A stretch of DNA of 64,000 nt from NCBI GenBank assembly GCA_002495885.1, contig DAHG01000025.1, positions 84,353-148,352 on the forward strand, given 5' to 3'. The position numbers and the translations under genes are program-made. The stretch's first letter is position 1. Each line of letters begins with the position of its first letter. Below the pieces are notes generated by a model, which saw only the letters and a program-made list of their open reading frames with translations, searched no databases and was not told the DNA's origin. This document shows, piece by piece, positions 1-42,800 of this stretch. Source of the stretch: Methanocellaceae archaeon UBA148 (GTDB taxonomy: Archaea; Halobacteriota; UBA148).

Positions 1-830
1 GCGTCAGATGTCCACCCTACCTCGAGTGTGAGAAGGCAATATGGGCTGGTCATAGGTTGAAGGACACATATGCAGACTTTGAGGATGAGGCACGCATGAT
101 ATACCACATAATAATGGAAGTGCTTAGCGAGGGAGACGCAGACGGCGCTCCTTTTACCTTCCCACTAGTGACCACAGCTATCACCTCAGACCTGGGACAG
201 AAAAGGATCCATTGTGGATAGTCACGATGAAGGCCACAGCCAGCACAGGTGCGCCCTATTTTTTAAACCTAATAACAGACTATCTTAAAGAAAATTTTGT
301 TCAGGCCATGTGTTGCGGGCTTCTCGTTACTCACTCCAGATGCGTATGGTCGGCAGGAGGGATGGGCACAGGCTCAAACAAAGTAATCACATTGAATCTT
401 CCGAGAATTGCCCTCGAAAGCAAGGATGAGTCTGGTTTTTTGAGTTACTAGAAGATAAAATGGAGATCGCTAGGGTAGGATTAATTCAGAGCAATAAAAT
501 CATAAAGAGATCATTGGACGAATGGCAGATCCTGCCGTGGCTGAAGATGGAGACCAAGGAGGTCCAACCGTACTATGATTTTGAGCAAAGAAGACTGACA
601 TTTGGAATAGTCGGGCTGAAAATGAATGTCTGCTGAATCTGATCCATGAGCCCATTATATCAAAGGATGGTTACAAGTTTGGGCTGAGAATGATCAAACA
701 CATGTATGAGCAGATCAAAAATTATTCTGAAAAAGATGGCGTGACCTATACATTCGAGCAAACGCCTGCTGAATCGGCTGCACATCGACTTGCCATGATC
801 AGCTTTGCTCCTAAAGTCCGTTTTTCAGCC
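1..830 (+). pseudogene. nrdD: Anaerobic (class III) ribonucleoside-triphosphate reductase NrdD-like gene. It is cut by the left window edge, broken into at least 4 reading frames, and its 3' end is replaced by the repeat element at 801-950.
   Basis: Translated pieces follow NrdD order in shifting frames: ...GDADGAPFTFP (frame 3, 3-218), VITLNLPRIALESK (212-451), KMEIARVGLIQ... (460-630), and GLNECLLNLIHEP...YTFEQTPAESAAHRLAMI (about 600-800). NLPRIAL and the TPAE/TPSE block are conserved NrdD motifs in that order. No glycine-radical C-terminus is present. Confidence 0.5.
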
Positions 831-950
831 GACATTAGGAGCAAGTTCAATTCGCTATGAGCTTTGCTCCTAAAGTCCGTTTTTCAGCCGACATTAGGAG
901 CAAGTTCAATACTTTAGGAGCAAACACGACTTTAGGAGCAAGGCTGAGTG
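801..950. repeat. Palindromic repeat element in about 2.5 tandem copies. The core is GCTCCTAAAGTCCGTTTTTCAGCCGACATTAGGAGCA, which contains nested inverted repeats (gctcctaa...ttaggagc and tcctaaagtc...gactttagga).
   Basis: Near-identical copies at 801-850 and 851-900, plus partial inverted copies at 908-945. A related copy lies at 14771-14830. Confidence 0.6.
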
Positions 951-1029
951 AGGCGATAATGTTAAATACGAAGGTAAATAATGTAATTTCAAACAACTGA
1001 TTTTGTTAATTTTAGTCAGGTGAATATAT

Positions 1030-1659
1030 ATGAGCGTTGAACAATACAAAGGTACTACAACGGTTGGACTGGTTTGTGATGACGGCGTTGTTTTAGCTAC
1101 TGAAAGACGAGCAACTATGGGTAATTTCATCGCAAGCAGGGATGCCAAAAAAATATATCAAATCGATGACCAAGTGGGCATGACCACTGCAGGCATGGTT
1201 GGAGACGCACAAACCCTAGCAAGAACTATTGCAGTGGAGTCCAAGCTCTATAAAATACGAAGACAAGAGCCAATGACTGTAGGTGCTACAGTAACGCTAC
1301 TGTCCAATATCCTAAGTGGTAATAGGTATTTTCCATACTACGTACAACTAATCATAGGTGGAGTGGATAAAAAAGGCCCCAGTCTGTATTCATTAGATGC
1401 ATTTGGTGGTCAGCTCATGGAAAAAAAGGCTGTTGCAACAGGGTCTGGTTCACCAACCGCATACGGTGTCTTAGAGGACAGGTATGTGGATGACATGCCA
1501 ATAAATAAGGGTGTTACCCTTGCTATACGTGCCTTACATACTGCTATGAAGCGAGACTCAGCTTCTGGTGACAGTATAGATGTGGTGAAGATCACATCGA
1601 AGGGATATGAAACCGTGGATGAGGCAAATGTCTCTAAAATAATCAAAGAACTAAAATAG
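1030..1659 (+). CDS. psmB: Proteasome beta subunit
   Basis: 209 aa. Propeptide followed by [23 protein letters not shown], the Ntn-hydrolase Thr active-site context typical of archaeal PsmB. Confidence 0.9.
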
Positions 1660-1683
1660 CCTGTTCTTTTGAAGGAAAATTAA

Positions 1684-3588
1684 ATGTCAGTAGAAGAAGT
1701 TCTCAATGAACTTAAAGTGAGAGTCCAAGAGGTGCTTCCTGAGGGTATAACCATATCCAACATAGAATTCGAGGGACCAGAACTTGTCCTATACACAAAA
1801 GAGCCTCGAAAATTTGCAGATAACGGTGATATTCTTCGGGTGCTCGCAAAAGACCTGCGTAAGCGAGTTGTCGTAAGACCAGATCCCAGCGTTTTAGCCT
1901 CAGAAGAAGATGCCATCAAAAAGATCAGGGAGATCGTTCCCTCGGAAGCTGGAATTACCAATCAATATTTTGATACAAGTATAGGTGAGGTAATCATCGA
2001 GGCAGAAAAACTGGGCTTGGTGATCGGCAGACATGGGGCCATGCTTCGAGAAATCACCAAACACATTGGTTGGACTCCTAAGGTAGTAAGGGCACCACCA
2101 ATTGAGTCTTCCATAATCAAAAACGTTCGCCAGTATCTACGTTCTGAAAGGGATGCTAGAAAGGTCTTCCTAAGGCAAATTGGTAAGAAAATCCATCGGG
2201 ACGTAACATCTAAAGATTCGTGGACACGTGTTACAACCCTGGGTGGATGTAGGGAGGTCGGCAGAAGTTCGTTCATATTATCTACACCAGAGACGAGAGT
2301 GTTGATAGATTGTGGCATCAATGTTGGGTCTGAGAATGATGGCACCCCCTACCTATACGTGCCAGAGGCATGCCCAATTGATCAGATAGATGCCGTTGTG
2401 ATAACGCATGCCCACTTGGATCATGCTGGCTTGGTTCCATTGCTTTTCAAATATGGCTATGACGGCCCTGTCTATTTGACGGCCCCCACCAGAGACCTAA
2501 TGTCATTGCTACACTTGGATTATATCGAAGTTTCTGCTAGGGAAGGAAAGAAAACGCCTTACGAGTCATCGATGATCAGGGAAGGATTGAAACATACCAT
2601 AGCGCTGAACTATGGGGATGTCACTGACATAGCACCAGATGTAAGGTTGACACTTCACAACGCTGGTCACATACTTGGGTCATCGATAGTACACTTCCAC
2701 ATCGGTGAAGGTCTATATAATATTGCTTTTACAGGCGACTTCAAGTACGAGCCAACCAGACTATTCGATCCTGCTGTGAACGACTTCCCCCGATTGGAAA
2801 CGTTGATAATGGAGGCTACTTATGGGGGGGCTCAGGATAATCAACCCTCTCGTAGAGATGCAGAACGAGAGTTACATTCCATAATAAAAAGAACCATTGC
2901 CAGAAAAGGCAAAGTGATAATACCAGCATTCGCTGTGGGCAGAAGCCAGGAGGTCATGATAGTGCTTGAGGAAGCCATCCGAACTGGCCTCATCGATGAA
3001 GTTCCAGTTTACTTAGATGGCATGATCTGGGAGGCCACAGCTATTCACACGACATATCCAGAGTATCTGAATAATGACCTGCAGGAGTTAATATTCCATA
3101 GGGGATTGAACCCATTCTTATCGGATTGTTTTATCCAAGTGGAACCTGCGAAGCGCCAAGAGATCATTGCAGGGGGGCCCTCAGTGATACTTGCTACATC
3201 AGGCATGCTAAATGGGGGGCCTGTTATGGAATACCTTAGGGCATTAGGTCCTGATGAGCTAAACACGCTCGTATTTGTAGGTTATCAGGCAGAGGGTACG
3301 TTAGGAAGAAGAGTCCAGAAGGGATGGGGTGAAGTTCCATTTTCAATAGAAGGAAGGACTGAAACCATTCAGATCAAGTTGGAAGTGGCGACCGTGGACG
3401 GATTTTCCGGCCATTCAGATAGAAGACAGCTAATAGAGTATATCAGAAGAATGGTTCCACGTCCAGAAAGAATATTGACTAGTCATGGTGATGCGAACAA
3501 TTGCATAGAGCTAGCAAGCGCCATACATAAAAGATACGGGATAGAGACAAGGGCACCAATGAACTTGGAAACGATGCGGTTCATCTGA
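1684..3588 (+). CDS. fttA: Archaeal CPSF1-type beta-CASP ribonuclease with N-terminal KH domains and a metallo-beta-lactamase domain (aCPSF1/FttA)
   Basis: 634 aa. It has the HAHLDHAG metallo-beta-lactamase motif, a KH-like N-terminus, and sits immediately downstream of psmB. Confidence 0.88.
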
Positions 3589-3706
3589 GTTTGTGACATC
3601 TAAAATATTTTTTGTAAAGTAAGTAGGTAGTATCCTGCAAAAACTATCTAACGATAAAAATAGGGCACGTCCTTTGGAGCTTAAGTAGGGTTCATTATAG
3701 GGTTCA

Positions 3707-4354
3707 TTATTTTGAGGGCAAACTCTTGAACTCACACAAGTCGCCCAACGGACATTCGCCACATCTAGGGCGCCTCGATCGACAATATTCCCTGCCAAAT
3801 GCGATTAGTGCACTATGCGCTGAGCCTAATTTCCTTGGGGGAATCTGGCTTTCTAAGGTAGCCTTAACCGCTTCATGATCTGCATTTTTTGGGGCCAGAC
3901 CGAGCCTATGAGCTACTCGAAACACATGAGTGTCCACCGGCAGGACATTATGTGCACCTGAGAAGAGAAGCACGCAATCAGCGGTCTTTGAACCTATACC
4001 ATTGATGCTCAACAGGTCTGCACGAGCGACATCGACATTTTTTTGCACTACCTTGTTTAGGTCACCATATTTCTCGGCGATCAACTTTGATATGTCTATA
4101 ATTCGTCTAGCCTTGATATTATGCAAACCACCTGGTCTTAATAAAGTTGCGAGTTTGCCTACGTCAGCTTTAGAAATCTCTTCTGGAGTCTGAAATCTTG
4201 AGAAGAGATTCCTTGAGGCAATTTCCATATTGCGATCATTTGTGTTCTGTGATAGAATTGTCCTGACCAAAACGTGGAAGGCATTATCCTCCTTCCAGGT
4301 GAGTTGTCCGTAGATCTCGATCAGCCGATCCACAACTTTTTTCGCTTTGGTCAT
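3707..4354 (-). CDS. nth: Endonuclease III (HhH-GPD DNA glycosylase with a 4Fe-4S cluster)
   Basis: 215 aa. HhH-GPD region (LLSINGIGSKTADCVLLF) and a C-terminal CRSRRPRCGECPLGDLC cluster. Confidence 0.85.
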   Translation of the reverse strand: MTKAKKVVDRLIEIYGQLTWKEDNAFHVLVRTILSQNTNDRNMEIASRNLFSRFQTPEEISKADVGKLATLLRPGGLHNIKARRIIDISKLIAEKYGDLNKVVQKNVDVARADLLSINGIGSKTADCVLLFSGAHNVLPVDTHVFRVAHRLGLAPKNADHEAVKATLESQIPPRKLGSAHSALIAFGREYCRSRRPRCGECPLGDLCEFKSLPSK

Positions 4355-4372
4355 GTAGTGTACGTAATGTAA

Positions 4373-6019
4373 TCACATCCTCATTGGTGGCATTCCACCT
4401 GGTGGCATCCCCCCCTCTGCCCCCAGTGGGGTCTCTAGATCCATCTTGTCAGCTGCGATCACATCATCTATCCTTAGAATCATGACCGCTGCCTCTGTTG
4501 CAGAGGAAATGGCTTGGGTTTTCACCCTCAGGGGTTCGACCACACCGGCTTCCATCATGTCGATGACTTTTCCCTTGTAAACATCCAGTCCGGCGTTCTT
4601 TTTGCCCTTCTCATGCTGGGATCGCAACGCAACGAGCATGTCTATCGGATTCAGCCCGGCATTCTCTGCGAGAGCTCTTGGAATGGATTCCATTGCATTT
4701 GCAAACTTGGTAACAGCCAGCTGTTCTTTTCCACTTAGAGATGCACTATACTTTCTTAGCCTAATTGCCAACTCTACTTCAGAAGATCCTCCCCCAGAAA
4801 CGATCTTTCCCTCTTCTATTGATACTCTTACAACTCTTAGTGCATCTTGCAAAGCCCTCTTAAGTTCATCAACAACTTGATCGGTTCCGCCCCTTAGGAA
4901 CAAGGAAACTGCCTTTGGATTGTCACACTTCTCTACAAAAACCATCTTCTGACCAGCGAACTCCCTCTCCTCGACCAATCCTGCTTTGCCCAGATCGCTC
5001 GCCGTGATGTCATAGACTTTGTTAACTATGTTAGCACCGGTTGCCCTTGCCAATTTCTGCATATAGGTTTTCCTAACCCGTTTGACCGCCACTATTCCAG
5101 CCTTGGATAAATAATGTTGCGTCATTTCATCGATGCCCTTTTGACAGAATAACACGTTTGCTCCACTACTGGATATCTTATCAGCCATACCTTTCAGCAT
5201 TTTCTCTTCTCCTGCAAGGAAATCGCGGAGTTGATCCGGCGATTTGACTGATATCCCAATATCGGTCTTAGTAGGCTTTATCTCAAGTGAAGCGTTGACC
5301 AGGGCAATCTTTGCATTTTCCACCTTCTTTGGCAGATTTGAGTGCAGCATTCCTTTATCAATTATAATTCCTTTTATCAGCTCTGAATTGGCAGTATTGC
5401 TCCCTGTTTTCTTCTCGACAGAGATATCCTTTTCATTCACAACATATTTGCCCTCAACTTTTTGAGCAACCGATAACACAGCCTTCACCGCCAGCTCAGC
5501 TAAACTATCTCTTGCTGAACCCTTTCCAGTCATCGATGTTACCGCTATCTTTTTGAGAGCACTTTCATCACCAGGAGTCAAAGTTGTCGCAATAGAGTCC
5601 AGGATTTCTTTTGCCTTTTCTGCAGCCATTCTGTAGCCAGATGTTATGATCGTCGGATGCACTCTCTGTTCTATCAAATCCTCAGCCTGCTTCAGCAATT
5701 CTCCTGCGATAACTACTGCGGTGGTGGTGCCATCCCCGACTTCATTATCTTGGGTCTTAGCTACCTCTACGATAATCTTCGCAGCAGGATGCTGAAGTTC
5801 TATCCTCCTCAAGATCGCCGCACCATCATTGGTGATCAAGGCATCATCATTCGGAAACATAAGCATCTTGTCCATCCCCCTGGGACCCAGGGTCGTGCGG
5901 ACTAAAGAAGCAATCGATTTAGCAGCAGTGAAGTTCCTGTTCTGCGCATCTCTTCCTTTCGTTACTTCGGTTGAATCTGCTAATATTATTACGGGCGTTC
6001 CACCCAGTTGTCCTGCCAT
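4373..6019 (-). CDS. ths: Thermosome subunit (group II chaperonin)
   Basis: 548 aa. Contains the GPRGMDKM signature and a C-terminal [11 protein letters not shown] tail. Confidence 0.92.
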
Positions 6020-6096
6020 TTATCATACCTCTTTTGATTTATAACACCAAATTGATTGTTTGTAGTTCTATATAAAATTTATAGTTGGGTGAGGAG

Positions 6097-6186
6097 TTTG
6101 CACCTAAAGTCCATTTTGGCCCTAAAGTCTGGAGTCTGACCCTAAAGTCATGTTTTTTCCCTACTTTTCCCTATTTTAGGTGCAAA
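6097..6186. repeat. MITE-like element with terminal inverted repeats (ttgcacctaaa ... tttaggtgcaa) and three internal direct CCTAAAGTC repeats. It is related to the 801-950 family.
   Basis: Read directly from the sequence. It lies in the thermosome-ilvD intergenic region. Confidence 0.5.
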
Positions 6187-6330
6187 ACTAGTTAGTAGTA
6201 TTGGTAATTCTTTGAGGGATATTTATGAGTGTTAACTATCGTGGGATGTATATCTTTGCTCCAAGGCTTGGCATCTACTTCTTAAATTATCCTAGCAAGA
6301 TTTATAATCTTTTAAATTTATGCTAATTTT

Positions 6331-6519
6331 GTGGTTGAAGACGAAAGCAATGAAGATGTAATTGAAGAAGAAAGCGACGAAGATCTAGAAGAGTTTATAG
6401 AGAAATTTAAAAAAGAAGTAATTAGACTAGAAAAGGAACTATCACCTTTGATGAATGAGAAAGTCACCAAAGAAAAGATTGGCATTTTTTTTATAACGCA
6501 TTCTATTCTAATAAATTAG
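6331..6519 (+). CDS. Hypothetical small acidic protein (coiled-coil-like)
   Basis: 62 aa ORF rich in Glu/Asp. No recognisable family. Confidence 0.2.
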   Translation: MVEDESNEDVIEEESDEDLEEFIEKFKKEVIRLEKELSPLMNEKVTKEKIGIFFITHSILIN

Positions 6520-7029
6520 CAACAGTTACAAAGTGGATCGCCTATGCTACGGTGATTTTAGCTGGTGCAACTATATTGCAAACCATAAATGCTATTTATG
6601 GTCCAGAACTTGCTAATAAGTACGTAGAAATCATAAGATTCATTATTATTATAGCAATAGTTTCCATTTTCTTGAAATCTCTTTGGGACCTAGTAAAGTC
6701 GTTTTTAGTCGGTTTAAAAGAGTTTGGGTTAAAATAAAAACCAGAAAATGATGCAATATCTCGGCAAACTCTCTCATCACTTCTTTCAGAAACTTCGCAA
6801 AATCATGTATTTCTCAGACTTTATGGCTGGCATTTTGGATTAATGTTACCCACTTGTTATCTCCAAAAACCACTATTCCCCAAGATTCAGCTGGTGTTCT
6901 ACCATTTAGGGCTTGATGCAGTCTTATGAAATCGTAATGCACAAGCCAGCCTTTAAGAAATATCTCAGTAAGTCATCTTCACCGGTACCACGCTATAGAA
7001 ACCTTTTTCAAAGCCTAACCGTCTATTAG

Positions 7030-8694
7030 GTGGGGGAATTTAGTTTGAGAAGCGATTCCATAAAAAAGGGTCTTGAGAGGGCTCCACACCGGGCCCTGCT
7101 TCATGCTTGTGGCTTGACAAGCGAGGATTTTGAAAAGCCCTTTGTTGCGGTCATAAACAGTTATAACGAAATTGTTCCTGGCCATATTCATCTTCGCAGG
7201 CTAGCTGAAGAGGTAAAAAAAGGAATAAGCAACAGCGGAGGGGTGCCATTTGAGATGAACACGATGGCTATCTGCGATGGATTGGCCATGGGCCATGATG
7301 GCATGCATTATTCGCTCCCCAGCCGAGAAATAATTGCAGACTCCATAGAACTATGGGTTCAAGCACATGCATTAGACGGCATGGTTCTAATTCCGAGCTG
7401 TGATAAGGTTGTACCGGGCCACCTGATGGCAGCAGCAAGAGTGAACATTCCGTCGATCGCCATTACTGGTGGTCCGATGAAACCAGGCAAATTTCATGGA
7501 GAGAATGCAGACGTTATAACGGTTTTTGAGGCAATGAGTAAGACCGCAGCAGGCATGATGACCCTGGAGGAACTGGGATCGCTCGAACAGGTTGCATGTC
7601 CCGGTGCAGGTAGCTGTGCTGGCATGTTCACTGCCAACACCATGGCTTGCGTGACAGAAGCGTTGGGCATGTCGCTTCCCGGCTGTGCAACAGCGCACGC
7701 AGTTGATAATAAAAAAATGGACTTGGCTTTTGAGACTGGGAAACAAGCGATGCAACTGATCGAAAGAGGCACCTTGCCCCTTGATATCATGACAGAGGAT
7801 GCTTTTAGCAATGCGATTATAGTAGATTTGGCTCTTGGAGGGTCCACCAATACGGCACTTCATTTACCTGCAATCGCACATGAAGCAGGCATTGATCTCG
7901 GGCTGAAAGTCTTCGATGAACTGAGTAAAGTCACCCCCCATTTATGCAATATGAGGCCAGGTGGACCATTTACTATGGAGGACCTTGATAAAGCCGGCGG
8001 CATCCCTGCCGTCATGAAGTGGCTAGAGCCGAAATTGTTCAGAAAAGCGCTAACCGTATCGGATAAAACGTTGGGAGAGAATCTGAAGAATGTTAATATT
8101 GCCAATAACGAGGTCATCAGACCGCTTAACAGACCCGTTCATTCAGAAGGCGGGATAGCAATCCTCAAAGGAAATATCGCACCTGGTGGTGCCATTGTCA
8201 AACGTACAGCTGTTAACGAAAACATGTTAGTTCATGAAGGTCCAGCTCGCGTATTTGATGGTGAGGAGGATGCGGTTGCCGCAATTCTTAACGGATGCAT
8301 AAAAAAAGGAGATATTGTCGTTATTAGATATGAAGGGCCAAAAGGCGGACCTGGAATGCCAGAGATGCTGGTGCCCACATCAGCTATAGCAGGCATGGGC
8401 TTATCAGATTCCGTTGCACTGATAACAGATGGAAGATTCTCTGGAGGTACACGAGGATCTTGCATTGGCCATATATCCCCAGAGGCATTTGAAGGCGGAC
8501 CCATAGCCCTTATTAAAGATGAAGATATCATCTCGATAAACATCCCTGCTAGACTGATTGAAGCTGAGCTTAGTGAAGGTGAGTTAGAGCAGCGTAGAAA
8601 AAAATGGTCTCAGCCAAAACAAAAACTGAGTGGTTATCTTGCCAGATATATAAAGCATGTTTCATCTGCGGATAAAGGTGGAATTTTAAGATAA
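7030..8694 (+). CDS. ilvD: Dihydroxy-acid dehydratase
   Basis: 554 aa. IlvD/EDD family motifs (CDGLAMGH-like region, [15 protein letters not shown]). Confidence 0.9.
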
Positions 8695-9152: not shown

Positions 9153-9767
9153 ATGAATAATACGAAACGGAACGTGGGTTATCTCATGGTAGCAATTCTG
9201 ATAATCGGATTAGTCCTTATGTTGCCAGTAAACGTTCAAGAAACCTACGATGCTACTGAGAGGTGCATCGAAAAAGAGCCCTATACTGCTATTGAGACAT
9301 ATTACGTAAAAGAACCTTATACAGCATACGTACCGTTAAGTTATACTGTACTAGATCATATACACTTTGACCTTATTCATCGTGACTTTTACACTCGTGA
9401 CAATATCCCCCATGACTGGATCTCTGGATGCGATGTTTCGGTGATAGTTAAAAATATGGACAATGTAGGAGGGAATTTGTGGGTAACATTATATGTAACA
9501 ACATCAACAGGGTCATATGAGTGCACAACTGATTCAGTGTTTTTAAAAGGAGGAGATAGGCACGAATTCCTTTGCACATTTCAAGGCGATTACAACTCTT
9601 CTACTTATGAGGTACACCGAACAACAAAAGAAGTGATTGAATATCGTGATGTGCCTAAAGAAAGAACAGTAACTAAATATCGTGATATGATTAAAGAAAG
9701 AATGGTATTAAAAACGAAAATAGTGCAGAAACCCATCTACGAACTCATTTATTCTTTTCTGTCGTGA
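9153..9767 (+). CDS. Hypothetical secreted or membrane-anchored protein with short internal repeats
   Basis: 204 aa. N-terminal hydrophobic segment, then repeated EPYTA..ETYYVKEPYTAYVP and KYRDMIKER / EYRDVPKER segments. Confidence 0.35.
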   Translation: MNNTKRNVGYLMVAILIIGLVLMLPVNVQETYDATERCIEKEPYTAIETYYVKEPYTAYVPLSYTVLDHIHFDLIHRDFYTRDNIPHDWISGCDVSVIVKNMDNVGGNLWVTLYVTTSTGSYECTTDSVFLKGGDRHEFLCTFQGDYNSSTYEVHRTTKEVIEYRDVPKERTVTKYRDMIKERMVLKTKIVQKPIYELIYSFLS

Positions 9768-9956
9768 TTAATTTTATCAAATAATCTTTTATTAGTAAAC
9801 GTTCTCGACCATTTGTCTGACATGTAATAGGCTATTCTAAATCATTTGACACTAACTTAGGGATTAATGGCTGCTAACAAGAATCTACGCATTTAGTGTA
9901 TCTTTATGATGCATGGTACCTAAATTAAAGGATACTGAAAAAAGGAGAGAACTGAT

Positions 9957-12596: not shown

Positions 12597-14717
12597 CTAT
12601 TTCAGCTTTTCATCCACGCTGACACCCAGTTGCTCCAGAATGTTTATTGCGATTTTATTTCCAACCAGCTCACCAATCTTTTTGGGGTCGGCATTTTTGA
12701 GTTTATTGTGGTCAGTGAAGCCTGCATCGTACAATCTGCGGGCTCTGACCCGACCCACCCCCCTTAGAGTGACCAGTTTAAGAAGATCTTGATTGATGCC
12801 ATATTTGATCCGCATCACCAAGCGCCTCGCATCTTTTGTAAAAGGACGCTTTAGAAAAGCAGACAATTCTGCCGTGCTATGCACGAGCCATTCCGCCGTC
12901 TCAGTTAACGTACGAATGTCTCCAGGACCTATGCCGAATCTTGTGATAATGTCGTTTTCCTCTACCTCGTCGATCCAATCCAAGAACATCATTGCAGTCT
13001 TAACCTCAGCAAGAAACCACTCGTCACCATCTACGTAAAAGAGCTCCCTATCATGCTCTTCTGCAAAATTCTGTACCCATATGCAATCCTTACTTCGCAG
13101 GTAGAGTTTTCTCATATCTGGCGTTCTGCAAACCAGATGTAGCAGTGTAAGCAAAGTTGGGTCTTGCATCGATTTCAGTGCATTGATGATGATCGAAGCG
13201 GACAAAGGATCTATGTACAGTTTCGAGACCAATTTTCCCAGTTGAGTGGCATGTAGTTCCCCGTCTGATTCTGTAGACATGCCCTCACTTTCCAAAAATT
13301 CCAGCACAGCATCAATCACATGCTCTATGCTCCATCTTTCCTGTTGTGAGCCATAGAACGTTGCTTCTATAAAATCGAATAGTTCACTTCGCGATAGGGC
13401 AAATCCAGTTGCAATGGTCGACAAGATGTGTGTGCGAAGTGCGTTCTCGGTGCCAAGCTTCGACCAAATCCTCTCTGGGTAGGCAAGCACATAATTTTCC
13501 ATCAGCTCGTTCAACTCATCAAGATTTCTTGCGATGAGGACTGATTCACCATAAGGATCTAAGCCCGGACGACCTGCTCTGCCACACATTTGTTTTATCT
13601 CCAGGACGGGTATTGGCGTCGATCCAAAGTTGAGATCATACCTTTTGTAATTCCTGATTATCACCCGTCTTGCCGGTAAGTTGAGACCTGAAGCCAACGT
13701 AGGGGTGCAAGCTATTGCCTTTACCAAGTTGGATCGGAAGCCACCCTCTATAATGCGTCGATGCTCGCTATGTAACCCAGCATGATGAAAGGCCGTTCCT
13801 TTTTCGATATAGGAGGCGAGTTTTTCGCCTAGATCGGTCTCACCGACCTCTCGAATCTCTCCTGCTAAATTCATCAACCCAGCCAGCCCCTCAGAATCGA
13901 TCATGCCTTTAATGGCTCTGCCTACGCTTTTGGCCATGCTTTCAGAGTTTCGGCGGGTGTTGGTGAAGATGAGGCATTGCCCCCCCTCCCATATGGTATC
14001 CATCGAAAGTGCAATGGCCTCATCTTTATTCTTCGAACTGATCTCTTTTTTTGCATTTACAAAGTTGATGGCTCGCCCAAAAAGGACGCCCTCTCGCAAT
14101 TCTACAGGACGCCAGTCACTTTTGACAAGCTCTGCATTTAGCCATCCTGCCAACTCGTCTGCATTCCCTATGGTGGCACTCAGAGCAAGGATCTGGGCCA
14201 CTGGATTTAACTTCATTAGTTTTGTCAACGTGATTTCCAGCGTGGGCCCCCTATCAGCGGAGTTGATGAGATGGATCTCATCGGCAACGATGACCGTAAG
14301 ATGGGGCATCCAACTTACCTCATTCCTGAGTAGCGAGTCCGCTTTCTCAGACGTGGCTACGATGATATCATATGTGCCAAGCCACTCATCTTTCTGATCA
14401 AAATCACCTGTCGATATGCCCACCTTGATTCCCAGCTTTTTGAATTCAGAGAATCTGTCGAATTTTTCTGAGGCAAGTGCCCTAAGCGGTACGATGTAGA
14501 GTGCCTTGCCCCCGCTTAGCACTGACTTCAACATGGCAAATTCTGCCAAGAGCGTCTTGCCTGATGCGGTAGGAATGGCTGCAACCATGTTCTTCCCATC
14601 CAGTATGCCATGTAGAATGGCATCCGCTTGGGGGGGATAAAGCTCATCGAATCCCGAATCTACGTAAAATCGGATTAAGCTCTGGGGTAACTGATCGAAC
14701 AGCTCGCTAATTTTCAT
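12597..14717 (-). CDS. hel308: Hel308/Hjm-type Ski2-like DNA helicase
   Basis: 706 aa. Walker A (AAIPTASGKT), DEIH box (VADEIHLI), and a C-terminal HhH-like domain typical of archaeal Hel308. Confidence 0.85.
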   Translation of the reverse strand: MKISELFDQLPQSLIRFYVDSGFDELYPPQADAILHGILDGKNMVAAIPTASGKTLLAEFAMLKSVLSGGKALYIVPLRALASEKFDRFSEFKKLGIKVGISTGDFDQKDEWLGTYDIIVATSEKADSLLRNEVSWMPHLTVIVADEIHLINSADRGPTLEITLTKLMKLNPVAQILALSATIGNADELAGWLNAELVKSDWRPVELREGVLFGRAINFVNAKKEISSKNKDEAIALSMDTIWEGGQCLIFTNTRRNSESMAKSVGRAIKGMIDSEGLAGLMNLAGEIREVGETDLGEKLASYIEKGTAFHHAGLHSEHRRIIEGGFRSNLVKAIACTPTLASGLNLPARRVIIRNYKRYDLNFGSTPIPVLEIKQMCGRAGRPGLDPYGESVLIARNLDELNELMENYVLAYPERIWSKLGTENALRTHILSTIATGFALSRSELFDFIEATFYGSQQERWSIEHVIDAVLEFLESEGMSTESDGELHATQLGKLVSKLYIDPLSASIIINALKSMQDPTLLTLLHLVCRTPDMRKLYLRSKDCIWVQNFAEEHDRELFYVDGDEWFLAEVKTAMMFLDWIDEVEENDIITRFGIGPGDIRTLTETAEWLVHSTAELSAFLKRPFTKDARRLVMRIKYGINQDLLKLVTLRGVGRVRARRLYDAGFTDHNKLKNADPKKIGELVGNKIAINILEQLGVSVDEKLK

Positions 14718-14770
14718 TGAAATAAATTAATGGTCGAATCCGAGAAAAGCATTTCTCTCTGAAGCCTTGT

Positions 14771-14830
14771 TCCTAAAGTCCATTTTTCAGCCGACATTAG
14801 GAGCAGAATGACGACTTTAGGAGCAAAGCT
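14771..14830. repeat. Copy of the palindromic repeat family (TCCTAAAGTCCATTTTTCAGCCGACATTAGGAGCA...GACTTTAGGAGCAAAGCT)
   Basis: Matches the 801-950 element in 35 of 37 core positions. It sits just upstream of hel308. Confidence 0.6.
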
Positions 14831-14926
14831 TCTCTCTGAAAAAGAGTTATATATCGTAATGTTTATGAATAGATATAATAAAACTAAGTATGAGAAGGGC
14901 GTATATTCTAAGTATGACACGGGCGT

Positions 14927-16885: not shown

Positions 16886-17154
16886 AGATTAAGTTTTAAT
16901 TTTTTTAGTATTCCTCAAATTTACTGATTGTTTTTGTTTAAGCAGAAAGGATATTTTGGCGATGTATGTCCCAAAAAAGGTTTAAATGCGAAATGTTAAA
17001 GTATAGGGATTTTTTTATATAATATAGGATGGTTGCAGATAAAACTGAGAAAGAAAAAGAAAAACCAATTCAAGAAGCATCAAAGCGTGCAAAAGTTGAA
17101 ATTAAAAGATGTCTAGGCATAATCAAAAAATGTATTAATACCAAGTCCTTTGTC

Positions 17155-17165
17155 TTTTTTTTTTT
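17155..17165 (+). terminator. Oligo-T tract (T11), a possible terminator for the + strand YgjP-like gene
   Basis: Eleven consecutive T on the + strand. Confidence 0.25.
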
Positions 17166-17174
17166 CCAAATCCA

Positions 17175-17261
17175 CGCCGGGAGAGGGATTTGAACCCTCG
17201 TGTCCCGAAGGGACACTGGTTTAGCAAACCAGCGCCTTAGACCAGACTTGGCTATCCCGAC
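17175..17261 (-). tRNA. tRNA-Ser (GCU anticodon) with a long variable arm
   Basis: Reverse complement GTCGGGATAGCCAAGTCTGGTCTAAGGCGCTGGTTTGCTAAACCAGTGTCCCTTCGGGACACGAGGGTTCAAATCCCTCTCCCGGCG folds as a cloverleaf. 7-bp acceptor stem with one G-U pair, anticodon loop TTGCTAA, T-loop TTCAAAT, long extra arm. Confidence 0.85.
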
Positions 17262-17320
17262 TTCCTATATCATCCATGTGTTTAAACGAGATAAATAATT
17301 TTGCTTGATTATGTTAAGTA

Positions 17321-17634
17321 GTGGGCATGCTTTTCGGTCGCAGCTCTCCCTCCAACCAGTGATCCAAAAACCCGTCTCAACCCCGCAACCCTGCGAACGC
17401 CAGTATTCCACGGTGGGTCTGCTTCCTTCCGGACCTGGACCGGTGCCCATGGTTAAGTTGTAAGGACAGGCCCTACAGCCAGCCCCCACACCAAATGCCA
17501 ACCCCGTAGGACGAGGCTTCACAGTAAAGTTCTTAGATTTAATTGAAGTTAAAACTTCTCCCGCCAAGCTTCGCCTCTCGCCTATCGACGTTTTCGAGTT
17601 ACAAGTGACGCCGAGCCACCCAGGCTAGCCCACC
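17321..17634 (-). ncRNA. ffs: Signal recognition particle RNA (7S/SRP RNA)
   Basis: The minus strand contains the universally conserved domain IV motif CAGGUCCGGAAGGAAGCAGAC. The 5' end (GTGGGCTAGC) pairs with the 3' end (GCATGCCCAC). About 314 nt, GC-rich, adjacent to tRNA-Ser. Confidence 0.75.
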
Positions 17635-17740
17635 AATTTGATATCGAATCCGAAACTAAATAAACCTATCGCACCGAGATTTTGAAAAGCCTCGAAAGAG
17701 AGATGCGTCCTATTCCAAAGCAATAAACTTATCATGCTGT

Positions 17741-18004: not shown

Positions 18005-18013
18005 TTAACTAGT

Positions 18014-18087
18014 GGGGCTGTAGGGTAGCCTGGTTATCCTATGAGACTGGGGGTCTCGTGACTGGAGTTCAAATCTCCGCAGCCCCA
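18014..18087 (+). tRNA. tRNA-Pro (GGG anticodon)
   Basis: GGGGCTGTAGGGTAGCCTGGTTATCCTATGAGACTGGGGGTCTCGTGACTGGAGTTCAAATCTCCGCAGCCCCA. The acceptor stem GGGGCTG pairs with CAGCCCC, the anticodon loop is CTGGGGG, and the T-loop is TTCAAAT. Confidence 0.8.
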
Positions 18088-18140
18088 TCCAGAAAAGCTT
18101 CTAACTCATTTCATTCCGGGATGATGAGACATCCTACAGA

Positions 18141-39825: not shown

Positions 39826-42800
39826 TTATCCGCCGTAGTACTCTTGGAGGGATTTGATGGTTATGTCTTTTGTTCCCCCTATTTTTTCCATGGCCTCCAC
39901 TGATGCTTGTGCACCAGCGATGGTCGTTATATACGGAATGTTGAGTTCCACCGCATTCCTTCTTATCACATAACCGTCTCTCTTCGCCTCTTTTTTCCTG
40001 CTTGGCGTATTAATCACCAGTGATATCTTTCTGCTCTTCATATAGTCCACGACGTTTGGTCTGCCTTCACTGACCTTGAGAATTTCTTTGGCCCTGACAC
40101 CCTCCTGTCTCAACGCTTCCGCAGTTCCGTTTGTAGCAAATATGTCGAACCCCATTTGTTGAAGCTTTTTGGCAACAGGAATGATGAGGTCTTTGTCTTC
40201 TTCTTTTACAGATAAAAAAACGTCCCCTTTCGCAGGTAATCGCATGTTTGCACCCAACTGCGCTTTATAGAACGCCCTTCCAAAATCCACATCAATCCCC
40301 ATGGCCTCTCCCGTGGACTTCATCTCGGGCCCTAATACCGGGTCTACCCCAGGCAATTTTATGAAAGGAAACACCACCTCTTTCACTGCAACGTGCCCTA
40401 TGGGCGGGAGTCCTACATAGGTTTTTGGGAGCGATTGACCCAGCATAACTTTAGCAGCAAGTTTGGCCAAGGGTATGCCAACCGCCTTGGAAATGAATGG
40501 AATCGTCCTGCTTGCTCTTGGGTTCACCTCAAGAACATATACCTTATCTTTTACTGCATATTGGATATTCATCAGGCCTTTCACACAAATCTCTCTCGCC
40601 AGCCTGGTGGTATATTCTTTCACAATTTGGATCGTCTCATCGCTCAGAGACTGTGGGGGCACCACACATGCGCTATCACCGGAGTGAATCCCTGCATGCT
40701 CTATATGCTCCATTATTCCCCCTATCAACACATTCTCCCCGTCTGAAACAGCATCCACGTCCAGCTCAATCGCAGGTTGTAGAAACTTATCTATGAGTAC
40801 GGGGTGTTTCGGTGACACACGCACAGCTTCTGCCATATATATGTCAAGCTCTTTTTGATCGTAGACGACCTCCATAGCCCTCCCCCCCAGGACGTAGGAA
40901 GGGCGTACAAGGACGGGGTAATTTATACGAGAAGCTATTTTTCTGGCTTCCTCGAGAGACATGGCAGTTCCAGATTCTGCTTGAGGAATGCCCAGACGCT
41001 CCAAAAGTAGTCTAAATTTACCCCTATCCTCTGCCAAGTCTATGCTCTCATACGGTGTTCCAAGGATTTTCACTCCTGCCATCGAAAGTTGTTCGGCGAG
41101 ATTGATTGGTGTTTGGCCCCCAAACTGGACCATTACCCCATAGGGGTCTTCTCTCTCTATGACGTTCATCACATCCTCAAAGGTGAGGGGTTCAAAATAT
41201 AATTTATCCGATATGTCGAAATCTGTCGATACCGTCTCAGGATTGTTGTTTATCACGATGGTCTCTACACCTTCTTCTTTTAGCGCAAATACCGCGTGGA
41301 CCGTGCAATAATCAAACTCTATTCCTTGCCCTATTCTGATCGGCCCGCCCCCCAGTATGATGACCTTCTTTTTATCTGAGGAAACGATTTCGTCCTCCTC
41401 CTCATAGGATGAATAGTAATAAGGTGTACGGGCTTCAAACTCTGCTGCGCAAGTGTCAACCATCTTGTAGACCGCTTTGATACCTTTCTTCTTCCTGAGT
41501 TCTCTTATGGTAATCTCATCAGATCTGAAAATATGTGCAAGTTGCAAATCAGAAAAACCAAGCTTCTTCGCCTCTTTGATCGTCATAAATACGTCGGGGC
41601 TGTCCAACGAAAGATTTCTGAGCTCTCTCTCCATAGAGATGATGTTTCGAATTTTGTACAAAAACCATCGATCGATCTTGGTTAGATCATATATCTCATC
41701 TATGCCCATCCCCATGGCAATGGCGTCTCTGACATGAAAGATCCTCATGTCTGTGGGTTTTCTCAACTTCGTGCGGAGGTCCTCCGCATCTGTTATCGGC
41801 TCAGATTCTCCGTCTGCCCCCAGCCCATATCTCCCTGTATCAAGAGACCTGATCGCCTTTTGTAGGGCTTCCTCGAACATGCGCCCGATTGCCATCACTT
41901 CGCCGGTCGCCTTCATCTGCGTCCCAATGATCTTGTTTGCCTCTTTGAATTTATCAAAAGGCCATCTCGGAATCTTGCAAACGATATAATCTATCGTGGG
42001 CTCAAACGAAGCAGGCGTTTTTCCCGTCACTCTGTTCAGTATCTCATCGAGATTTAAACCAAGCGCAATCTTTGTGGCGACCCTTGCTATCGGATATCCT
42101 GTTGCTTTTGACGCGAGAGCAGAACTCCTGCTTAGCCTCGGATTCACCTCTATGACAAAATAATCGAACTTGTCCGGGCGTACTGCAAACTGAATGTTGC
42201 AGCCTCCCTCAACCTTTAAAGCTCTTACTATCCTTATAGCAGCGTTTCTCAATATGTGGTATTCACGATCAGTCAATGTCAGCACAGGAGCAACCACTAT
42301 GCTATCGCCCGTATGTATCCCCATGGGATCAACGTTTTCCATGCTGCAGATCGTAATGCAGTTGTCTGCTGAATCCCTGACCATTTCGAACTCGATCTCT
42401 TTCCACCCTATCACGCATTGATCAAGATTTACCTCGCTATTCATACTGAGGTCAAGACCCCTCATCGTAATCTGCTCGAGCTCCACCATATTGTAAGCGA
42501 TGCCGGTTCCGGTGCCTCCAAGGCAATAGCCCGGTCGAATGATTACAGGAAAACCAATCTCTTCCGCACCTTTCTTTGCCTCCTCCAGAGAAGAAGCTTT
42601 TATCGATTTCGGGACGGGCTCACCCACGTCCTTCATGAGATCGAAAAACAGCTCCCTTTCTTCCGCCCTCATGATCGACTCTACAGAGGTTCCTATCACC
42701 CGACAGCCGGTCTCTTTTAGGACTCCCGTTTTATGCAATTGAACTGCAAGATTTAGGCCTGTCTGCCCCCCTTGTGTTGGAAGCAGGCTATCTGGCCTTT

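Follow-up and report, generated by a model that had tools for sequence, protein, structure and literature searches.

Miniature inverted-repeat transposable elements and a MITE-bounded inversion in a Methanocellaceae archaeon

Introduction

Miniature inverted-repeat transposable elements, or MITEs, are known from several prokaryotes, among them the Correia elements of Neisseria, SM1-SM4 of Sulfolobus and the MITEs of haloarchaea and methanogens, and they have been reviewed (PMC10969869, PMC11602168). We describe here a family of short repeats in 64,000 nucleotides of DNA from Methanocellaceae archaeon UBA148 (assembly GCA_002495885.1, contig DAHG01000025.1, positions 84,353 to 148,352 of the forward strand; this whole stretch is called the window). 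The same DNA is contained in contig Draft_10000023 (161 kb) of JGI metagenome 3300001580, and NCBI gives the label 'Methanocellales archaeon' to a protein identical to its thermosome. The repeats are MITEs, and two identical copies in inverted orientation bound an inversion of ~11 kb, one end of which lies in the window. The best overall explanation, to which we assign a probability of roughly 0.9, is a MITE family mobilized in trans by a transposase of the IS5-family type. Its consequences here are an insertion at hel308, an insertion beside the thermosome promoter, a truncated copy at the break in nrdD, and the ~11-kb inversion.

The family resembles the described prokaryotic MITEs in being tens of nucleotides long, noncoding, intergenic and bounded by terminal inverted repeats (TIRs). 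It also resembles them in making a target duplication of fixed length, in its insertion polymorphism, in having ends common to a transposase-encoding partner and in driving rearrangement. It differs from the usual ones in its asymmetric interior, which has three direct 14-bp cores spaced at 18 and 20 bp and one inverted core, in having at least three subfamilies (A, B and C) whose cores covary, and in its parents, which are cargo transposons of 4-8 kb rather than simple insertion sequences (ISs). A literature search found no description of this repeat family, of archaeal SWIM-IS5 transposases or of Methanocellales MITEs. As it stands, this is a well-documented, unsurprising MITE family and fairly ordinary mobile DNA. 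Its interest is that a single agent accounts for the three intergenic repeat sites, for the broken state of nrdD and for the loss of synteny in this region, and that a short repeat is tied to a large archaeal transposase family whose full-length members carry restriction-modification and toxin-antitoxin-type cargo.

For the transposase, the comparison is with the IS903 group (IS903, IS102 and IS903B). IS903 has a transposase of ~307 aa and a simple 18-bp inverted repeat. It is 1057 bp long and produces 9-bp duplications, adjacent deletions and cointegrates (PMC12670165); a target consensus of WTTYA-N9-TRAAW has been given around its 9-bp duplication (PMC2577343). The parent transposases of the present family share with that group the DDE_Tnp_1 domain, the DDE triad, the Y-2-R-3-E-6-K motif and the 9-bp duplication, and IS903B is their commonest annotated plasmid match by tblastn. 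Unlike the group, they are 390-415 aa long, an excess of ~90-130 aa, and have a SWIM-like zinc finger at the N-terminus. Their elements have several sub-terminal cores per end in place of one simple 18-bp inverted repeat, and are 4.4 and 7.7 kb with restriction-modification and toxin-antitoxin-type cargo, as opposed to a compact ~1-kb IS with one open reading frame (ORF). They stand apart from the annotated IS5-family transposases in falling just below the NCBI IS5 cut-off and in an identity of only 21-25% to the closest annotated plasmid relatives found by tblastn (IS903B, ISPpa3 and ISSod12, all IS5-like). No clear match to WTTYA-N9-TRAAW was seen in the six to eight targets that could be reconstructed, a small sample.

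Eukaryotic MITEs with sub-terminal repeated motifs, Emigrant/Lemi1 (PMC1636448) and the IS5-related Tourist/PIF-Harbinger, are similar in having multiple transposase-binding motifs inside the TIRs, in being non-autonomous deletion derivatives mobilized in trans, and in lying near genes. The likeness is architectural only; transposase lineage, duplication length and host all differ.

Results and Discussion

Anatomy of the Repeats

A preliminary description of this DNA, made from the sequence alone, had placed repeat elements at three intergenic sites. All three are there, in numbers far above chance. A 14-nt core, TTGCTCCTAAAGTC, occurs in 13 copies across the three sites and practically nowhere else in the 64 kb. 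With up to two mismatches allowed, there are six matches at 805-941 (site 1), two at 6098-6129 (site 2) and three at 14767-14826 (site 3), with a single stray match at 40447; at three mismatches, site 2 gains two more. The 9-mer CCTAAAGTC is found eight times in the window, always within these sites, against an expectation of 0.45 and with none of 100 shuffles reaching eight. A profile search with nhmmer turned up zero extra copies in the remaining 49 kb of the window. The tandem arrangement claimed for site 1 is borne out by a 59-nt direct repeat at 93% identity (798-856 and 857-915) and by an exact 41-nt core duplicated at 805-845 and 864-904. The core sequence was described correctly overall, except that the left arm at site 3 reads GTTCC and not GCTCC. 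The elements and their target duplications are as follows.

801-850, + strand: u1, a subfamily-A MITE truncated to a terminal core, a 12-nt spacer and an inverted core
851-859, + strand: T2, TTCGCTATG, one half of a 9-bp target duplication, its partner lying beside the twin MITE at junction B, outside the window
860-945, + strand: u2, a complete 86-nt subfamily-A MITE at inversion junction A, with cores at 864, 890, 910 and 928
946-954, + strand: T1, GAGTGAGGC, one half of a 9-bp target duplication, its partner at junction B
6095-6189, + strand: subfamily-B MITE of 95 nt, between the thermosome gene and ilvD
14754-14762, + strand: left target-site duplication, TCTCTCTGA
14763-14830, + strand: subfamily-A MITE of 68 nt (nhmmer E=6e-20)
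14831-14839, + strand: right target-site duplication, TCTCTCTGA

The full layout is best seen in u2 read on the minus strand, as AGCCTTGCTCCTAAAGTC-gtgt-TTGCTCCTAAAGTA-ttgaac-TTGCTCCTAATGTC-12 nt-GACTTTAGGAGCAAAGCT. That is, three direct cores follow one another at start-to-start distances of 18 and 20 bp, and after a 12-nt spacer comes one inverted terminal core. The outermost 18 nt form the terminal inverted repeat, AGCYTTGCTCCTAAAGTC. The other units can be described by reference to this layout. The 68-nt copy at site 3 is the full layout minus one 20-nt core unit, and u1 is identical to the first 50 nt of a full copy (nhmmer E=5.8e-16). The element at site 2 has three direct variant cores (TTGCACC.., TTGGCCC.. 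and CTGACCC..TAAAGTC), again spaced at 18 and 20 bp, together with an inverted terminal core. The preliminary description had noted three direct repeats of CCTAAAGTC there, and they stand at 6103, 6121 and 6141. The TIR arms are 18-20 nt long and 90-95% complementary at sites 1 and 3; at site 2 they are 12 nt long and perfectly complementary (6097-6108 and 6175-6186). In all, five units of 50, 68, 86 or 95 nt lie at four loci within 81 kb of the contig. They have no coding capacity; an nrdD fragment is the only ORF to overlap them, and it does so by a spurious tail.

The cores fall into subfamilies. Subfamily A has TTGCTCC.. cores and occupies sites 1 and 3. Subfamily B has TTGCACC or CTGACCC.. 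cores and occupies site 2, so that the related variant suspected between the thermosome gene and ilvD is a second subfamily. Subfamily C, with TTGCACA.. cores (TTGCACATAAAGT), is found only in relatives, at loci L048 and L050 (L numbers designate the compared loci). Subfamily B has kin at L041:17127-17214, a different locus from site 2 (nhmmer E=4e-30 and 1e-27). Only one core variant is used per element, with all cores inside an element in agreement. This uniformity suggests that each subfamily has co-evolved with a cognate binding protein, as opposed to having drifted.

Target-Site Duplications and Empty Sites

The site-3 MITE is bracketed by a perfect 9-bp duplication. In L041 (GCA_028692575.1), whose thermosome is 85% identical to that of the window organism, the corresponding position upstream of hel308 is uninterrupted and has a single TCAGAGAGA; the alignment gap is 77 nt, which is the 68 nt of the element plus 9. 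An 86-nt subfamily-A copy lies within a perfect 9-bp repeat, GCACTGACT, in L004, a contig of a metagenome-assembled genome (MAG) from a more distant relative with a thermosome 76% identical. At site 1, both L041 and L042 have one uninterrupted T1 in the stretch from Mut7-C to psmB, and the position of the second copy, upstream of the Methyltrn_RNA_3 gene, is empty in L047.

The 9-bp duplications, the empty sites, an identical second copy of u2 and ends shared with full-length transposons (both described below) support the reading of these repeats as MITEs. The suggestion of a mobile MITE family in the preliminary description thus holds up: the duplication is perfect at site 3, T1 and T2 are each found across two junctions, relatives have empty sites at sites 1 and 3, and the identical copy is 11 kb off. 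That description had also named, as a finding that would refute mobility, relatives carrying the repeats at orthologous positions with no polymorphism; what the relatives have instead are empty sites.

In all four type-A insertions, the nucleotide just 5' of the 9-mer is a T, as is the element's terminal nucleotide (window 14753 and 14830; L004:~6364 and 6459; L043:13075 and 13170). The T may alternatively reflect a preference for T at that place in the target. In the full-length elements of L034 and L035, the duplication is exactly 9 bp. A reading of u1 as a mini-element with the inner core as its end was also considered and was ruled out, as the flanks mismatch. For the L041 relative of the site-2 copy, the flanking 9-mers match at 6 of 9 positions.

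The preliminary description had offered a structured regulatory or terminator RNA as the alternative, by which the repeats would be hairpins of 5' untranslated regions, small RNAs or transcription terminators kept for a function at the RNA level. The hairpins are indeed stable, at -24 to -33 kcal/mol with z-scores of -2.6 to -6.1, and on one strand the hairpin loop has a run of five Ts. Both strands fold nearly equally, however, as inverted repeats in DNA would, and the copies stand in either orientation relative to the neighboring genes. Rfam 15 gave no match at gathering scores; the best score, 27.7 bits against a 55-bit threshold, was a chance match to a eukaryotic snoRNA model. A promoter and terminator scan around site 1 found no terminator-like site, and the sigma-70 matches it reported are meaningless for an archaeon. 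An RNA gene would account for neither the target duplications nor the empty sites, and we regard this alternative as very improbable.

The 11-kb Inversion

Upstream of psmB, the genes of L041 run in the order Mut7-C, archease, MgtC, CorA, RtcB and nrdD. L048 has the same order without CorA and nrdD, and there RtcB adjoins Methyltrn_RNA_3 and the ribosomal operon. The portion of this un-inverted order from RtcB to the methyltransferase gene is also present in L047. In the window organism, the order is reversed, and it is the 5' part of nrdD that faces psmB. The reversed order predicted a second MITE at the other breakpoint, and it was then found at L043:13085-13170, on the same contig outside the window and ~11 kb away, between Mut7-C and Methyltrn_RNA_3. 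It is identical to u2 at 86 of 86 positions. The features concerned are these.

L043:2120-13170 (numbered in reverse relative to the window): inverted segment of ~11 kb with Mut7-C, archease, a methyltransferase, MgtC, CorA, RtcB and the 5' part of nrdD; window 1-945 is its right-hand end
1-800, + strand: nrdD pseudogene remnant, the 5' ~two-thirds of the gene with frameshifts and stops; the final ~800 nt of the inverted segment
1030-1659, + strand: psmB, proteasome beta subunit (Pfam Proteasome)

The target 9-mers are distributed as expected of an inversion at these two elements, which is predicted exactly by either of the routes considered below. The twin MITE has T1 on one side and T2 on the other, and each 9-mer occurs once per junction, in inverted orientation. 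The T2 copy after the twin is at L043:13171-13179. T2 is native to the region upstream of Methyltrn_RNA_3, and it reads CATAAAGAA in L047 and L048. In blastn comparisons with L041 and L048, the flanks and the 2.1-13.1-kb interior align in opposite directions, with the breakpoints at the MITEs; the one in the window falls at the outer edge of u2. Two identical inverted MITEs therefore bound the ~11-kb inversion. Junction B is present also in an independent ENA assembly (L044), and independent Logan contigs break within the MITE at junction B (L045) and at junction A (L002), so an assembly artefact is an unlikely source of the twin copy or of the inversion. Nature has here supplied a clean example of an inversion bounded by MITEs, with each junction reconstructible from relatives to the nucleotide.

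There are two routes by which the inversion could have formed. By the first, two MITEs in inverted orientation would have inserted independently, each with its own 9-bp duplication, and homologous recombination between them would have inverted the DNA in between. By the second, a single copy would have undergone one intramolecular replicative transposition. Because both predict the observed flanks exactly, they fit the structure equally well and cannot be separated.

The preliminary description had the element replacing the 3' end of an nrdD pseudogene. The pseudogene itself is clear. There are four ORF fragments on the + strand (57-221, 212-451, 460-636 and 690-860, the last of which enters the first repeat), three of them match Pfam NRDD, and the N-terminus of the L041 NrdD aligns to the remnant by tblastn in three different frames. 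The L041 product is 596 aa long. Its gene (L041:20624-21653) looks intact across the first 343 codons, with the rest beyond the locus. The 3' third of nrdD is wholly missing from the window, and u1 sits at the break, a position that suggests that an earlier element-associated deletion truncated the gene. The element has not simply taken the place of the 3' end; a truncated copy adjoins the broken gene. The nearness of the pseudogene to psmB has another origin, since it was the MITE-bounded inversion that moved nrdD there. Both the truncation and the inversion fit with the adjacent deletions and cointegrates of IS903. Between Methyltrn_RNA_3 and RtcB, nrdD is absent from L047 (7084-7544) and L048 (7179-7443) as well, so the anaerobic ribonucleotide reductase gene is one that has been lost repeatedly across the clade, whatever the MITE did here.

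A locus of another relative has a MITE at what may be a comparable edge. The DNA left of the subfamily-C MITE in L050 (982-2151 and 3136-3221) is unrelated to the Methyltrn region, which points to another rearrangement at a MITE edge. That DNA encodes a 389-aa transposase of the IS240/IS6 type with a weak SWIM match.

Full-Length Elements and Their Transposase

A metagenome scan with the 18-mer tip of the inverted repeat returned 28 loci, about six to eight of which are true members of the family (L007, L010, L014, L029, L030 and L034, possibly also L013 and L021), the others being lone chance matches; the source contig was not among the 28. L034 has a 4.4-kb element (121-4566) with the same cores at its ends inside a perfect 9-bp duplication, GGTGGGGGG. 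L035 has a 7.7-kb element (843-8557) whose ends are laid out in the same way and whose 9-bp duplication, CCTCAGGAC, is likewise perfect. In L034, L035 and L040, each left end has three direct cores spaced by 18 and 20 bp, and each right end has two direct cores plus an inverted terminal core. The left end of L034 matches that of MITE-A at 47 of 54 positions, the gtgt spacer included.

A transposase ORF lies inside the L034 and L035 elements and just upstream of the right end in L040. The L034 protein is 393 aa long and matches Pfam DDE_Tnp_1 (PF01609) at 1.6e-26. Its best NCBIfam model is IS5 (NF033579) at 136.9 bits, with IS1182 next at 54.8 bits. The L035 and L040 homologues are 63% and 72% identical to it. 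In an alignment of 12 homologues, C49, C51, C61, H63, D210, D285 and E347 are invariant, as is Y340-R343-E347-K354; the CxC...CxH and Y-2-R-3-E-6-K motifs are thus found in 12 of 12. More than 3,000 homologues of ~400 aa exist in archaeal MAGs labelled Aenigmarchaeota, Helarchaeota and Altiarchaeota. They are annotated only generically, some with a precomputed SWIM match.

The full-length elements also carry cargo genes of a defence type. The cargo in L034 (676-4413) is a DUF4258 protein and a fusion of an N6_N4 DNA methylase with an Mrr-type nuclease domain. In L035 (897-8457), it is a SocA_Panacea protein and an Eco57I-like restriction-modification enzyme of 1103 aa. At L034 (4499-4633) and L040 (2194-2326), two of the three full-length loci, a right end gives way, across exactly 9 bp, to the left end of a second, non-identical element. 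In L034, the 9-mer between the elements is the target duplication of the first one. Such arrays suggest insertion immediately beside a resident end.

Since the full-length transposons carry the same ends and the same 9-bp target duplication, the short elements were most likely mobilized in trans by an IS5-family (IS903-like) DDE transposase of ~400 aa with an N-terminal SWIM-like zinc finger. Each short element would then be built only from putative transposase-binding-type sequence. A path from one to the other can be proposed. Cores 2 and 3 are direct at both ends of the full-length elements, and recombination or slippage between them would delete the interior and leave exactly an 86-nt MITE; loss of one further unit would give the 68-nt copy.

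Short, palindromic, intergenic units that are sometimes clustered might also bring to mind repetitive extragenic palindromic (REP) or BIME-type units spread by RAYT, an IS200/IS605-like tyrosine transposase, or else att-type sites of a recombinase. REP units, however, make no 9-bp target duplications and these elements do. The layout here is a TIR with sub-terminal direct repeats and not a REP doublet, and the sole coding partner with the same ends is a DDE_Tnp_1 transposase. We consider an origin of this kind extremely improbable.

Several observations weigh against the explanation by trans mobilization from an IS5-type parent. No target duplication is recognizable at site 2 (3 of 9 positions match) or around u1, and the shared T described above means that the type-A duplication could also be taken as one of 10 bp, the element then being shorter by 1 nt. 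The L034 transposase scores under the curated IS5 cut-off, at 136.9 against 140 bits. Neither the window nor the rest of the 81 kb of contig covered by the analysis has a transposase homologue, so the mobilizing enzyme of this genome is one that we infer and do not see. The full-length elements come from other metagenomes, from hosts known only as archaeal. Lastly, a scan of reference genomes with TCCTAAAGTCN{10,14}GACNTTAGGAG gave four loci, and L004 was the only genuine one.

Other searches delimit where the family was seen. A tblastn search with the transposase against the window, L001-L034 and two viral loci found only L034 itself. The matches in viral contigs were two lone chance ones, with neither further cores nor a transposase. 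L049, which is too distant and non-syntenic, has no MITE copies.

Genes at the Insertion Sites

Besides psmB and nrdD, the elements lie beside two genes.

4373-6019, - strand: thermosome gene (Pfam Cpn60_TCP1), with the subfamily-B MITE in its promoter region
12597-14717, - strand: hel308 helicase gene, an ORF downstream of the site-3 MITE

At site 1, the u2 MITE ends 85 nt upstream of the psmB start codon and ~16 nt upstream of a TATA-like TTAAATA. At site 2, the subfamily-B MITE is ~14 nt upstream of the thermosome TATA box, next to a promoter block, AAATTTTATATAGAACTAC.AACAATCA, that is conserved in L041 and L004. At the counterpart of this position in L041 (9880-9945), ATGACCCGA(C/A)G occurs twice, 30 nt apart; the pair could be what is left of a decayed element, or the repeat may be unrelated. 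At site 3, the MITE has inserted between the promoter region of hel308 and its start codon, 45 nt upstream of the latter. The domains of the L041 orthologue of hel308 are DEAD, Helicase_C and Helicase_dom4_arc.

Recurrent Occupation of the Same Positions

The same positions are occupied by different subfamilies in different genomes, to the nucleotide in two cases, and all of these positions are just upstream of TATA-like boxes. The edge of the thermosome promoter has subfamily B in the window (6095-6189) and subfamily A in L004 (6374-6459). Upstream of MgtC, at the same AAAAAAGG junction, L041 has subfamily B (17127-17214) and L048 has subfamily C in the opposite orientation (9746-9831; see also L047:~9780-9850). 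The MgtC site that is filled in L041 and L048 lacks an element in the window organism, and the flanks farther out do not align. Upstream of Methyltrn_RNA_3, at the target CATA(GC/AA)GAA, the window organism has subfamily A (L043:13076-13179), and L048 (7236-7305) and L050 (3136-3230) have subfamily C.

This recurrence may come from a target preference, from insertion beside resident ends or from conversion between copies. With so few sites, purifying selection or inter-copy conversion may be its source. A possible extension, which we put forward only tentatively and would rather doubt than accept, is that these elements represent an undescribed archaeal branch of the IS5 superfamily, with a SWIM-DDE transposase, asymmetric multi-site ends, a 9-bp duplication and defence cargo, and that it targets promoter edges and resident ends. 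Such non-random targeting would explain how different subfamilies hit one 9-bp target. If such targeting is real, the family would lend itself to the study of how archaeal DDE transposases choose their targets, and could be a natural source of tools for promoter-proximal insertion.

The recurrence also bears on whether the elements have acquired a regulatory role, a view with which their origin as MITEs is compatible. They would now be cis-regulatory modules, their 14-bp cores bound by a host factor or by a domesticated SWIM-domain protein just upstream of promoters (those of the thermosome gene, psmB, a methyltransferase gene and MgtC). Selection on such a function would account for the occupation of the same promoter-proximal positions in different genomes. 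Most copies do end 8-16 bp upstream of a TATA-like box, and the presence of different subfamilies at the thermosome, MgtC and Methyltrn_RNA_3 positions also favors this view. Against it, close relatives have empty sites beside promoters that are otherwise conserved, which makes the element dispensable. The genes downstream have no evident function in common, and the element faces them in varying orientation. In compact genomes, insertions are tolerated at few points, and purifying selection alone could cluster copies at promoter edges. The role is a proposed one, drawn from the arrangement of the DNA, and we think it unlikely.

The remaining features identified in the window, a tRNA-Ser(GCT) at 17175-17261, an archaeal signal recognition particle RNA at 17319-17635 (207 bits) and a tRNA-Pro(GGG) at 18013-18091, are ordinary genes and serve as archaeal markers for the contig.

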